From: a virus
Taxonomy: Duplodnaviria; Heunggongvirae; Uroviricota; Caudoviricetes
Direction: 5' to 3' (one strand)
Length of the DNA: 14,509 bases
IMG/VR virus record: IMGVR_UViG_2778261353_000006
Part shown: one piece after another, positions 3,093 through 10,322 of the stretch
Layout: each line of letters starts with the position of its first letter
How positions within the stretch are numbered: the first letter of the stretch is position 1
Notes under the pieces: generated by a model
What the model was told of the DNA's origin: nothing
The model's database searches: none
Seen by the model: the letters and a program-made list of their open reading frames with translations, nothing else
Position numbers and translations under genes: made by a program

Positions 3093-3255
3093 AACGACCT
3101 CACGTTTCGATAATTTTCACCTCACCACCTTCAGGTTCCAATCATCGGGTGGCGAACTGTGCAGGGTTGGAACTACCGGTCGAAACATCCGGCGCACCTT
3201 TCGGTGCCCCCACACAGCCCGCCATAAATCGCGAATGTGACTGTGCTTAGCGCAT

Positions 3256-3275
3256 AAAAAAACCGCCAGCGCGGT
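3256..3275 (-). terminator. Rho-independent terminator
   Basis: Minus strand: ACCGC-GCTG-GCGGT stem-loop followed by TTTTTTT, downstream of the DUF551 and 27-aa genes. Confidence 0.55.
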
Positions 3276-3361
3276 ATGCACCGTTTCGATATCCGGGGTT
3301 CCAATCCCGACGCCAGATTTTGCTGGCGCGTCGGAAATATAGCCCCGGATTAGTAATTACG

Positions 3362-3445: not shown

Positions 3446-4065
3446 TGATTCACCTCCTGCGGTGGTTCCGGTAGCGGCATCCAGTGAGTTGAGCTCTCTA
3501 CTTCGACGCCGTCTTTGTCCACAAAAGCCATCTTATTCCCGCCACGAGTGGGGCAAAAAACCTTATCCCAGGAACCGGGGAATACATTCCCGAGATCATC
3601 GAGAAGAATCACATCGCAATATTCAGCAGGAACTGCATCACTACAGCTTATCCAGCCAGCCGGAGTTCCCGGAGAGCTGGTTGACGTTTCCGAGATTTCC
3701 CGAAAATTGTTGGTTGACGAATTCTTACTTTCCCGAAAGTTTTCGGCCTGAAGCATGGCGACACGGCAAGCGTTCCAGCCATCAGTATATGTTTCAGTTA
3801 CACCGTCGAGATGGCAGGTAAGCAAATCCATTTCATCAGGCACTACCATCGCTGGCGGCGCTGCGTAAAGCGGTGTTATTTCTGCCCGAAAATCACCTAC
3901 TTTATGCAGTCGCACCCACCGTTCGATTTCTGCTTTGTCAGAATTCATAAGGGTGAACGTATTACATTCATGGTTAATTTGCGTGAAGGTTGCCTTCCAC
4001 GCCACCGGCTCTGCTTCCAGTGATGCCAGTGCAATTTTGAATAACTCGCCCTCTACCTGCGCCAT
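3442..4065 (-). CDS. DUF551 domain protein
   Basis: ATG at 4065; C-terminus ...GWISCSDAVPAEY...THWMPLPEPP is the DUF551 hallmark as I recall it. Confidence 0.75.
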   Translation of the reverse strand: MAQVEGELFKIALASLEAEPVAWKATFTQINHECNTFTLMNSDKAEIERWVRLHKVGDFRAEITPLYAAPPAMVVPDEMDLLTCHLDGVTETYTDGWNACRVAMLQAENFRESKNSSTNNFREISETSTSSPGTPAGWISCSDAVPAEYCDVILLDDLGNVFPGSWDKVFCPTRGGNKMAFVDKDGVEVESSTHWMPLPEPPQEVNQ

Positions 4066-4277
4066 CCCTGAATTTGGGTGGCATTTCGCAATCGCTATTT
4101 TTTAATTTGGCTTCTTCGATTAATTACTCTTTGGTTAATTCAGTCATTTTTCATTACCGCCCTTTCAGGCGGCCTCCTGATGTTTTGAGGGTGCAGAAAT
4201 CCCTCCGGTTAAGGATTTAATAAAAACCACTTCTGATTTAAATTTTCAGTGTTTTGTTATCAGATGGTTTATCACCT

Positions 4278-7592: not shown

Positions 7593-8000
7593 ATGAACGA
7601 GAAAACTTTAGGTCAACGAATTAGAGAAAGACGCAAACAGGTTGGTTTAAGTCAAAACGATTTAAGCAAAGCCGCTGGCGTATCTGGCTCATCAATTTCA
7701 CTATGGGAAAGCGACCATACAGCCCCGCGTGGGCAAAATTTGCATCGCCTGGCTGAGGTATTGCAATGTTCACCAACTTGGATACTGTTTGGTGACGAGG
7801 ATAAAACACCAGATCCACCAGTTGCACTCAACAGCGCCTTAGACTTATCGGAAGATGAGTTGGAGATGTTGCGATTGTATCGCGCACTTCCAAAATCAGA
7901 GCAGCAAGCACAAATCAGCGAACTCCGTGCCCGCGTTGAGAATTTTAATCGCCTATTCACCGAGCTACTAGAAGCTCGCAAACGTAACAAACATCAGTAA
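7593..8000 (+). CDS. dicA: DicA-like immunity repressor (XRE HTH, 135 aa)
   Basis: ATG at 7593; N-terminal HTH (LSQNDLSKAAGVSGSSISLWE); the LQCSPTWILFGDEDK motif and 135-aa length match E. coli DicA as recalled. Confidence 0.85.
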   Translation: MNEKTLGQRIRERRKQVGLSQNDLSKAAGVSGSSISLWESDHTAPRGQNLHRLAEVLQCSPTWILFGDEDKTPDPPVALNSALDLSEDELEMLRLYRALPKSEQQAQISELRARVENFNRLFTELLEARKRNKHQ

Positions 8001-8745: not shown

Positions 8746-9153
8746 ATGGAATTTAAAGATTTACCAAAAGAAATCCAGATAATTGCTGCAACGACACTCG
8801 GTGATAGTCTGGTGAAAATTGACCCGGCATACACCAAAAAAGAAACCATCGATAATATGATTCGTAATGTGCGCAATGCTTTTTCAGGGCTATATGGTTC
8901 TGATAATCAAAAACAGGAAAACGATATTGATGAACGGGTAATTTCTGTTTGCCTGAATGGTCATGTTATTTCAGCAATCAGAACAGAAACGGCAACTGTT
9001 TTTGATTATCTCTGCATGATTCAGAGTCTTGCTGATGTTCTGTTGAAATCAAAAGATTTAGAAAACGATGCAAATTTACAGGGGCGCACAATAGCACATC
9101 CATATGCACATACTTTAGGCTCTGTGGATATCAAAGATCCCACAAATCTTTAA
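8746..9153 (+). CDS. hypothetical protein (135 aa), AT-rich cargo gene
   Basis: ATG at 8746, GAGG SD, 22 nt after the ydfC stop. Visibly lower GC than its neighbours; no family recognised. Confidence 0.7.
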   Translation: MEFKDLPKEIQIIAATTLGDSLVKIDPAYTKKETIDNMIRNVRNAFSGLYGSDNQKQENDIDERVISVCLNGHVISAIRTETATVFDYLCMIQSLADVLLKSKDLENDANLQGRTIAHPYAHTLGSVDIKDPTNL

Positions 9154-9364
9154 TGAAATAGTTAACGCAAATTGTACTTGCTCTTTCAGTTGCTTTCAGA
9201 ATACGCGTTGAAACTGCTGGCGGTAATTTAGTATTCCATTTATTAAAATCATGCCCGGGAAAGTACTCTTCGAAAATACTTTTAACTGCAGACTCGCCTA
9301 TTGAAATGCTGCTTACCATGCGATTTTGATAAAGGCATTTAGCAATAAGAGTTGATTTTAACAT
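9131..9364 (-). CDS. hypothetical protein (77 aa), convergent with the 135-aa gene
   Basis: ATG at 9364 with AAGGGTGA upstream; AT-rich; 3' end overlaps the 135-aa gene by 23 nt on the opposite strand. Confidence 0.5.
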   Translation of the reverse strand: MLKSTLIAKCLYQNRMVSSISIGESAVKSIFEEYFPGHDFNKWNTKLPPAVSTRILKATERASTICVNYFIKDLWDL

Positions 9365-9687
9365 TCACCCTTCTGAGGGTTGGTAATTAAGGAGTTCTCC
9401 ACGGGTGAGGTGGAGTGCGTGCGCCGGACACGGGTGAGCATCCGGCACTGACAGTTTACTGAAAGGATATATCCCTGAAAAGTCAGGGCATAACACGAAA
9501 GCGTACGGCGAAGGCCTTCACCTATGAGGCTTGTCGTTAAATTTAATTCGACCGTACGCTTCCGGTTGTGGCAATCCGCGAAATGGAGCGGCGGTAAGTA
9601 TGGCAGGGGTACTATTCTCCCTCCCCTGTGGAGCACCGGGTTGTCAGGTTGACCATACGCTTAAGTGACAACCCCGCTGCAACAACC

Positions 9688-9750
9688 CATGTTGATTACC
9701 TTTTGGCGGGTATCCGTTTTTTGTTTTCCCTTGTGATACCCGCCCTTTTT
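9688..9750 (+). ncRNA. dicF: DicF-like sRNA (5' end approximate) ending in an intrinsic terminator
   Basis: Perfect 10-bp stem GGCGGGTATC (9705-9714) / GATACCCGCC (9735-9744) followed by TTTTT (9746-9750). The ...UUUGGCGGGUAUC... core and the location about 185 nt upstream of dicB match DicF of Qin as recalled; the 5' part differs from K-12 DicF. Confidence 0.5.
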
Positions 9751-9756
9751 AAAGTG

Positions 9757-9914
9757 AATTTTGTGATGCGGTGAATGCGGCTCAGCGCACGCGGAACAGT
9801 TAAAAAGGCCAGTTGACTTCCGTATTGGTTCTTATGGGTGGGTTCTCTGTATCCGGCGTTAATTGTTAACTGGTTAACGTCACCTGGAGGCACCAGGCAC
9901 CGCATCACAAAATT
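9757..9914. repeat. 17-bp perfect long-range inverted repeat enclosing about 124 nt between DicF and dicB
   Basis: AATTTTGTGATGCGGTG (9757-9773) and its exact reverse complement CACCGCATCACAAAATT (9898-9914); internal GTTAAC-based palindromes; the dicB SD lies just 3' of the distal arm. Confidence 0.7.
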
Positions 9915-9933
9915 CATTGTTGAGGACGCGATA

Positions 9934-10122
9934 ATGGAAACGTTATTACCAAACGTTAATACGTCTGAAGGTTGCTTTGAAATTGGTGTCAAAATCAGTA
10001 ACCCAGTATTTACTGAAGATGCCATTAATAAGAGAAAACACGAACGGGAGCTATTAAATCAAATATGCATTGTTTCAATGCTGGCCCGTTTACGTCTGAT
10101 GCAAAAAGGATGCTGGCAGTGA
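9934..10122 (+). CDS. dicB: cell-division inhibitor DicB (62 aa)
   Basis: ATG at 9934 with GAGGA SD 7 nt upstream; METLLPNVNTSEGCFEIGVKISNPVFTEDAINKRKHERELLNQICIVSMLARLRLMQKGCWQ matches DicB as recalled. The track start at 9838 is a spurious extension. Confidence 0.85.
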   Translation: METLLPNVNTSEGCFEIGVKISNPVFTEDAINKRKHERELLNQICIVSMLARLRLMQKGCWQ

Positions 10123-10322
10123 ATACAGCATTTGCACTCGCTCTGACAGTTTATCTTAATACTGGCGAGCCTGTTAATCTGGTTATTGACATTTACGGTT
10201 CAATGAAAGAATGCACGGCTGCCGCAGCGGAACAGAAAATTCCCGGCAACTGTTATCCGGTCGATAAAGTTATTCACATGGATAATAACGAAATCCCGGC
10301 AGGACTTAAAACAGCGCCGTAA
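10119..10322 (+). CDS. ydfD: YdfD-like small protein with N-terminal hydrophobic segment
   Basis: GTG at 10119 overlaps the dicB stop (GTGA) with AAGGA 8 nt upstream; alternative ATG at 10110. NTAFALALTVYL... hydrophobic start then ...EQKIPGNCYPVDKVIHMDNNEIPAGL. Confidence 0.6.
   Translation: MNTAFALALTVYLNTGEPVNLVIDIYGSMKECTAAAAEQKIPGNCYPVDKVIHMDNNEIPAGLKTAP

Follow-up and report, generated by a model that had tools for sequence, protein, structure and literature searches.

In rRNA operons and at the intercistronic RNase III sites of phage T7, a structured RNA is bracketed, or cistrons are kept apart, by complementary sequences on either side, and RNase III cleaves the bracket to free the parts. 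The phage lambda N leader, as reportedly described by Kameyama et al. in 1991 and Wilson et al. in 2002, is said to form a long-range stem whose end lies immediately before the SD of the first regulated gene in the early-left (pL-type) transcript; RNase III is said to cut both arms and remove the intervening RNA, and so to change translation.

For the dicF-dicB region of the Qin prophage of Escherichia coli K-12, the passage of Balasubramanian et al. 2016 (PMC5069750) that cites Faubladier et al. 1990 describes an RNase III-dependent 72-nt DicF derived from the full-length dicBF mRNA, and the corresponding passage of a 2022 review (PMC9438474) likewise credits a 72-nt RNase III-processed DicF to Faubladier et al. 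1990. The dicF-dicB intergenic region is among the RNase III substrates in a 2009 review (PMC2777011), and a separate RNase III site upstream of DicF sets the 5' end of a 190-nt precursor (PMC10448788). An RNase III dimer accommodates about 22 bp and leaves a 2-nt 3' overhang, and an in vivo rule holds that the pairs between the two cuts are paired, usually with a G-C (PMC6212723). A second set of relatives bears on the RNA enclosed by the stem described below. Enterohaemorrhagic E. coli O157:H7 expresses STnc100 copies, one of which is Northern-confirmed (PMC5331693); PasD, which has been reported as an STnc100 relative (bioRxiv 10.64898/2026.05.13.724894), is a Northern-validated small RNA with Hfq-dependent stability that was found via RIL-seq (PMC8550237). 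Neither of the two PasD reports mentions dicB or DicF.

The window analysed here, the whole stretch of 14,509 nucleotides, derives from a Qin-like lambdoid prophage of E. coli and is 100% identical to strain UTAK-3 over the region tested. Its gene order runs from a dicA-like repressor gene (7593-8000) through ydfA/ydfB/ydfC, an extra ORF, a small RNA in the DicF position, dicB, a ydfD-like gene and an exonuclease gene to xis and int. The dicB gene (CDS 9934-10122, + strand, ATG at 9934), assigned from the ORF list and from the RefSeq annotation of the 100% identical UTAK-3, codes for a 62-aa cell-division inhibitor and is the gene directly downstream of the stem. Related sequence was found in 4,645 of 5,426 E. 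coli genomes, and just 69 E. coli records contain copies at least 99% identical to window positions 9600-10130. A 135-aa ORF (8746-9153, +) and an overlapping 77-aa ORF on the opposite strand (9131-9364, -) are located between ydfC and the DicF precursor region; both are hypothetical in the UTAK-3 annotation and are missing from the K-12 arrangement. Elsewhere in the window, Rfam models locate sok (beside hokD), a C4 antisense RNA with its a1/b1 target, and isrK (2301-2471, 3145-3229 and 3256-3342, - strand), and this set, which adjoins an ORF6N-domain gene, suggests a P1/P7 immI-type antirepressor control module within a lambdoid prophage.

The first-pass annotation had described perfect 17-nt arms lying 124 nt apart between the small RNA and dicB. 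These are real, and positions 9757-9773 and 9898-9914 are the inner part of 19-nt arms (9755-9773, TGAATTTTGTGATGCGGTG, and 9898-9916) that are 100% complementary and separated by the same 124 nt. When the A-U and G.U pairs at the ends are included, the helix comprises 21 bp between 9753-9773 and 9898-9918. We refer to this stem as P1, with a 5' strand (AGUGAAUUUUGUGAUGCGGUG, 9753-9773, +) that is Watson-Crick perfect at 9755-9773 and a 3' strand (CACCGCAUCACAAAAUUCAUU, 9898-9918, +). P1 dominates the predicted fold, and is closed in both the MFE and the centroid structures of 9690-9960 (z = -4.4). An intrinsic terminator would have a U-run directly after its hairpin; here the 3' arm leads into GUUGAGGACG, and none was called on the stem. 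Repeats do arise by chance, and the arms could in principle be a chance inverted repeat with no function. However, the 19-mer is present at just these two places in the window, none of 200 dinucleotide shuffles contained two matches, and the breadth of conservation among E. coli genomes and the covariation described below refute a chance origin, which we give virtually no weight.

Relatives of the region were drawn from E. coli genomes, phage records and IMG/VR contigs carrying the invariant motif TCACCNGGAGGCACCNGGCAC, a search for which gave at least 120 viral contig matches. A scan of genome contigs with TGAATGCGGCTNNGCGC, in which 15 bases are specified, was dominated by chance matches in unrelated bacteria, and three genuine copies were kept after filtering (Citrobacter L138, E. 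albertii L142 and E. coli L159). Alignment A1 holds 42 distinct sequences of the window's subtype. Conservation of the two arms together, with compensatory changes, had been put forward as a check on the repeat, and is what we observe: across the 42 homologues both-side changes occur in 14 of the 21 P1 pairs. Ninety-four percent (94%) of P1 cells are paired, a value that falls to 32-40% when the partner strand is slid by 1-3 columns, and 0 of 500 shuffles reach the observed values; RNAalifold, with the structure not supplied, predicts the same P1. At two positions that are C-G and G-C in the window, the K-12 stem carries G.U wobbles. There are at least four unrelated arm sequences, each forming 20-22 bp, namely the dicB-linked form, a kilR-linked form with one bulged A, a form composed of CAACAGACCUUGCAAUGCAGUG and CACUGCAUUGCAAGGUCUGUUG (in L030, L035 and L083), and a form composed of AGCAGGCUUUAAGGUGCGGUG and CACUGCACCUUAAAGUCUGUU in the Citrobacter genome (L138).

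The types of base pair that are tolerated distinguish selection on RNA from selection on DNA. In 36 long-stem sequences the pairing cells of P1 comprise 686 Watson-Crick, 63 G.U, 4 A.C and 3 other combinations, and because G.U so outnumbers A.C, both a DNA palindrome and an opposite-strand RNA are excluded. A cruciform, a palindromic protein-binding site or MITE-like terminal inverted repeats would each make the arms a DNA element, the first two having been raised in the first-pass annotation, and such a reading draws on the perfect 19-bp palindrome with a 124-bp spacer that the arms form in the window DNA and on the recurrence of the module in many phage contexts. In most homologues, however, the DNA palindrome is broken and the RNA pairing is kept; the enclosed helices also covary as RNA, and the pairing persists through G.U pairs and through wholly different arm sequences. 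The cruciform and protein-site claims are therefore disfavoured, and we consider a DNA element of any of these kinds highly improbable. A MITE or terminal-repeat origin was rejected: the outer arms are wholly different between classes and the core is conserved, which is the opposite of the pattern for transposase-bound terminal repeats. The alignments show P1 to be a stem in the + strand RNA that is under RNA-level selection, and not a DNA palindrome. The inner length between the arms is 99-124 nt among the homologues, and because the differences are not multiples of 3 the interior is non-coding on both strands; a coding reading of the ORFs at 9838-10122 (+) and 9696-10025 (-) was rejected on the same grounds.

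The 124 nt between the arms had been regarded as a spacer, a description that does not hold, as they form a conserved structured RNA domain related to STnc100/PasD. Judging from sequence comparison, P1 is the closing helix of this conserved multi-helix domain (~125 nt), which includes a candidate pseudoknot; all of the elements that follow are on the + strand. The junction AAU (9774-9776) and the P2 hairpin (GCGGCUCAGCGCACGC, 9777-9792) are invariant in the 42 homologues, and although P2 is seen in the folds its exact register is ambiguous because there is no variation there among the homologues. A short helix, CGGA at 9792-9795 with 9852-9855, is predicted by RNAalifold (columns 43-46 and 106-109) and closes a variable insert (9804-9855) that differs in length and sequence among the homologues in A1. 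The 5' strand of P3, CAGUUAA (9797-9803), is the candidate pseudoknot partner of UUAACUG (9866-9872), which lies within the loop of the P4 hairpin (9857-9879; CGUUAA, 9857-9862, with UUAACG, 9874-9879). For P3, 95.6% of cells are paired and two pairs have both-side changes, and STnc100-type copies carry analogous P3 pairs (CCAGUC/GACUGG and AUCAGC/GCUGGU, read from the sequences). For P4, both-side changes occur in 6 of 6 pairs and RNAalifold predicts the helix independently. The GTTAAC sub-hairpins noted earlier do exist (CGTTAA and TTAACG, with TTAACTG in the loop, at the P4 and P3 positions just given), and belong to this conserved helix and candidate pseudoknot rather than being incidental. 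P4 is followed by the invariant junction UCA and the P5 hairpin CCUGG-AGGCA-CCAGG (9883-9897), which together span 9880-9897 and constitute the family's most conserved motif; a U-A pair in P5 is replaced by G-C in 9 sequences.

A permissive Rfam scan gave a lone meaningful match over the stem and its interior, to STnc100 (RF02076) at 9743-9966, with 34 bits and an E value of 1.6e-5; the score does not reach the STnc100 gathering cut-off of 47 bits, and the alignment is full-length, with P1 of the window aligned to the outer helix of the model. All ten of the other copies of this subtype that were tested (10/10) also match STnc100, at 33-45 bits. In the reciprocal direction, a covariance model built from A1 alone finds STnc100 copies in viral contigs at 35-66 bits, and its matches include copies that lack the motif used for fetching the contigs. 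The shared architecture consists of P1, the AAU junction, P2, P4 with a loop that pairs with an upstream P3, the UCA junction, and P5, whose consensus CCNGG-AGGCA-CCNGG runs straight into the P1 3' strand. We take the matches in both directions to show that the enclosed domain belongs near STnc100, as a divergent, sub-threshold relative of STnc100/PasD.

Stand-alone STnc100 copies score 52-132 bits, have a P1 of 6-9 bp, and often occur in tandem arrays next to tRNA genes. A strong promoter-like site ends 3-8 nt before P1 in 16 of 62 distinct stand-alone copies, and 39 of the 62 carry a terminator no more than 130 nt downstream. No promoter-like site or terminator of its own was found in any long-stem copy, and on the + strand of window positions 9300-10200 there is no promoter-like site and the sole terminator-like match is that of the upstream small RNA in the DicF position, with none past the stem.

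Several observations were made on individual STnc100-type copies. In many stand-alone copies (L006, L010, L032, L093, L097, L108, L114 and L115), a near-consensus promoter (a TTGACA-type hexamer, 17-18 nt, then TAAATT) lies just ahead of P1 and stops 4-6 nt short of its first base, so that the closing helix would be the first part transcribed. In L011 (2265-3380, with tRNAs at 4009-4160), L089 (4349-5513 and 8357-8555) and L023 (342-1038), 3-6 copies stand in tandem beside phage tRNA genes. The four-way layout of STnc100, with a 6-9 bp closing stem, a 3-nt junction, a hairpin, a large arm, and a 5-bp stem leading into the 3' strand, recalls the tRNA cloverleaf, in topology only; in the loci scanned, no tRNA model matches coincide with STnc100 copies. 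The E. coli copy in L159 (1376-1598, -) has a dicB-type P2 (AAUGCGGCU...), a short P1 of 9 bp and, about 60 nt downstream, a strong terminator; it is intermediate between the two subtypes, with an STnc100 score of 45 bits, just below the cut-off.

The long-stem module lies 18-45 nt upstream of dicB, kilR, a gene for a 283-aa protein, or genes for 94- and 64-aa proteins. The kilR-linked module is present in Rac-SA53 and in Shigella Stx phage 75/02, and in K-12 Rac the order of the KilS small RNA (b4833; PMC8175672), the element and kilR mirrors that of DicF, the element and dicB. The Rac KilS-kilR copy (L249, MG1655 1418201-1419500, minus strand; approximately 1418247-1418405) has GACAC at the P5/P1 junction and not the otherwise invariant GGCAC, which perhaps reflects mutational decay of a cryptic prophage. 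The copy in phages P7 and D6 has an 8-9 bp P1 and precedes tciA/terB within the ban operon, and from these operon-embedded copies it follows that the long stem is not required in every embedded context.

Upstream of P1, the small RNA in the DicF position (9690-9752, +) ends in a DicF-like terminator (9705-9752, +), in which a hairpin formed by GGCGGGTATC (9705-9714) and GATACCCGCC (9735-9744) is followed by a U-tract at 9746-9750; the inverted repeat and the fold give the same layout as in K-12 dicF, annotated in MG1655 at 1649382-1649434. The Rfam DicF model (RF00039), against which K-12 DicF scores 76.7 bits, gave no match to this small RNA at the gathering threshold, nor any at E <= 10 in 9300-10200. 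The name DicF given to it previously is thus apt for its position and terminator, and is not borne out by the Rfam model. Because a match is lacking even at E <= 10, the targets of the window's small RNA may differ from ftsZ and manX. Its 5' (seed) part, UGUUGAUUACCUUUUGG, is unlike the UUUCUGGUGACGUUUGG of K-12. The stem and dicB are transcribed only with read-through past the terminator in the DicF position. There is also a second hairpin on the + strand further upstream (9496-9508 with 9552-9564), with 13-nt arms that are 92% complementary and 43 nt apart. The 5' end of the K-12 190-nt DicF precursor is calculated to lie at K-12 1649245, corresponding to approximately 9559 in the window, and matches this hairpin; if the hairpin is the equivalent of the K-12 precursor site, two RNase III stems would flank the small RNA in the operon.

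Counting 72 nt from the dicF start at 1649382 puts the 3' end of the processed K-12 DicF at 1649453, a U at the boundary between AGUGAAUUUUGU and GAUGUGGUG. This end, as given in the secondary accounts of the 72-nt RNA, maps to bp 12 of the 21 bp of P1, and the equivalent position in the window is between 9764 and 9765. The 72-nt length comes from those secondary citations and the S1 mapping may be off by a few nucleotides, although a shift of up to about 9 nt stays within the 5' arm. Applying the 2-nt 3' overhang rule, the partner cut is predicted between 9908 and 9909, and the pairs between the cuts would be G9763-C9908 and U9764-A9907, with the cut site known to within a few nucleotides. 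The P1 length of 21 bp in the window, and of 20-22 bp in the four sequence classes, agrees with the duplex of about 22 bp expected for RNase III. In Table S1 of Gordon et al. 2017 (PMC5371410), MG1655 position 1649470 has 0 and 0 reads in the wild type versus 26 in the rnc mutant; this position is in the dicF-dicB intergenic region, 8 nt inside the element. Because the sites were forced to be at least 400 bp apart (PMC5371410), the signal is weak, region-level support, and part of it may come from the known RNase III site located 5' of DicF. An rnc-dependent RNA-seq site in Rac, at kilR-sieB (1418510), was discarded as independent support, since it maps to a hairpin upstream of KilS and not to P1.

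The first-pass annotation had suggested that the transcript contains a duplex of the kind cleaved by RNase III, and we agree: the arms pair as + strand RNA, and in the orthologous K-12 locus the 72-nt DicF end, as secondarily reported, is halfway along the 5' arm. The RNase III reading is right, and is in essence already published for the orthologous K-12 Qin locus. We consider it probable that read-through RNA forms the 21-bp P1 closing an STnc100-like domain, and that RNase III cuts both strands near the centre to generate three products. In transcripts that pass the terminator in the DicF position, 9753-9773 would pair with 9898-9918, and RNase III would cut both strands of P1 near the centre, presumably between 9764 and 9765 and between 9908 and 9909, a helix of 20-22 bp being a fit for one dimer. 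The first product would be the upstream small RNA with a 19-nt 3' extension (in K-12, the published 72-nt DicF), a tail that 3' exonucleases might shorten as far as the terminator hairpin. The second would be the domain itself, cut out with 9 bp of P1 and an overhang of 2 nt, 9 bp being a P1 length of stand-alone members, and the third would be a dicB mRNA with a 25-nt A/U-rich leader (9909-9933). What we infer here is that a second cut is made, that the domain RNA is released and stable, and that dicB translation or stability may be affected.

It could instead be that P1 only closes the STnc100-like domain, with RNase III cleavage incidental or absent in this prophage. P1 is present at this position in every family member, and the P7 and D6 copies work with 8-9 bp, as this explanation would have it. 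The stand-alone copies nevertheless manage with a P1 of 6-9 bp in all 62 distinct cases, the lengthening to 20-22 bp came about with no fewer than four unrelated sequences and is concentrated at the length of the RNase III footprint, and the K-12 5' arm contains an RNase III-dependent end according to the secondary accounts; a role restricted to closing the domain therefore seems unlikely to us. Returning to cleavage of P1 as the preferred reading, it is possible, and we suggest it tentatively, that the supposed spacer is a third operon product, an STnc100/PasD-superfamily RNA of about 145 nt that is excised by RNase III from a bracket that evolved repeatedly and that has a core function of its own. 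On this suggestion, a 20-22 bp bracket made from unrelated sequences upstream of dicB, kilR and other small genes would release an RNA with a 9-bp closing helix, and the pseudoknotted core, found also in the tRNA-side tandem arrays, might bind a protein or a ligand, beyond Hfq-type base pairing.

The dicB translation initiation region (9919-9936, +) consists of the bulge G9919, the SD GAGGA (9922-9926) and the AUG (9934-9936), and its SD lies 3' of the distal arm as originally noted. P1 ends 15 nt before the AUG and so would sit at the edge of the ribosome's landing site; the SD is 3 nt beyond the stem, outside the perfect arms. The dicB start codon is within a small hairpin at 9931-9946 (+; AUAAUG-GAAA-CGUUAU, compared with AUAAUG-AAAA-CGUUAU in K-12), which might further limit dicB translation. 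The U-tract at 9746-9750 can also pair with the SD across the bulged G9919 to form a 28-bp helix with one bulge. This raises the prospect that P1 is mainly a translational repressor of the toxic dicB, working through the pairing of U-tract and SD with or without RNase III. A fold of 9690-9995 leaves the SD with a P(unpaired) of ~0.05-0.1, the 28-bp helix is possible in the dicB-linked class, and the AUG is inside the small hairpin. However, the pairs between the SD and the U-tract are weak (three G.U and two A-U), the pairing is gone when the fold begins at 9753, and it is not conserved in the Citrobacter or L030 classes and is without covariation support, such that we think repression of this kind a rather improbable main role for P1. 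More generally, the accessibility of the SD and AUG computed by RNAfold with and without processing depends strongly on the 5' boundary that is chosen. Control of dicB translation through processing of P1 is plausible. Most likely, although we say so with low confidence, processing would help dicB expression by removing a stable helix that abuts, and perhaps weakly occludes, the SD; activation is favoured here by analogy with the lambda N leader.

In sum, the inverted repeat is real and functional and is largely known already, and the link to the STnc100/PasD family is modestly new. Also modestly new, alongside the STnc100/PasD-related domain inside the stem, are the repeated origin of RNase III-length stems and one module that dicB, kilR and other early genes have in common in their leaders. 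Both DicB and KilR are toxic division inhibitors whose expression from cryptic prophages must be tightly limited. At the stem, a read-through transcript is divided by cleavage into a portion with the small RNA and a portion with the toxin mRNA, as was worked out for K-12 in 1990 according to the later accounts. The present work adds comparative evidence of selection on the stem as RNA and for an RNase III length, and shows that one module precedes a range of early genes in Qin-, Rac- and other lambdoid prophages and has inside it a member of STnc100/PasD, a large phage RNA family about which little is understood. Should the domain be released in active form, the dicBF operon would encode one RNA more than is annotated, and there would be two routes of STnc100-type biogenesis, from an own promoter or by RNase III excision.

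Among known systems, the Rfam family STnc100/PasD shares with this locus P1, the AAU junction, P2, the candidate P3/P4 pseudoknot and P5, as well as reciprocal model matches and carriage by phages. It differs in that its P1 is 6-9 bp, compared with 21 bp here, in its location in the late region by Q, stx or tRNA genes rather than in an early-left operon, and in often having its own promoter and terminator, which are absent here, where the score is 34 bits against the 47-bit cut-off. The brackets of rRNA operons and of T7 are much larger or differently shaped, and the product here is a predicted domain of about 145 nt. The dicF-dicB site of K-12 Qin is orthologous, with about 86% identity over 9600-10130, and shares the stem, with two G.U wobbles in K-12. 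The K-12 locus contains DicF proper, whereas the window has another small RNA, and its arms are separated by 110 nt as compared with 124 nt here, the insert here being 14 nt longer; the window arms are perfectly Watson-Crick in contrast to the wobbles of K-12. The KilS-kilR leader of K-12 Rac similarly has a small RNA with a terminator, a structured element with a 22-bp P1 (one bulged A), and a small FtsZ-directed division inhibitor encoded 18 nt downstream of the element, but the downstream protein is KilR and the 3' arm has a bulge and extra G.U pairs. The lambda N leader has no sequence relation to this locus, and both the effect on N translation and the link to nutL are demonstrated there, whereas the effect on dicB is one we infer. 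The anatomy here fits the lambda N-leader type, with a stem that ends 15 nt before the AUG and an SD 3 nt past the stem.
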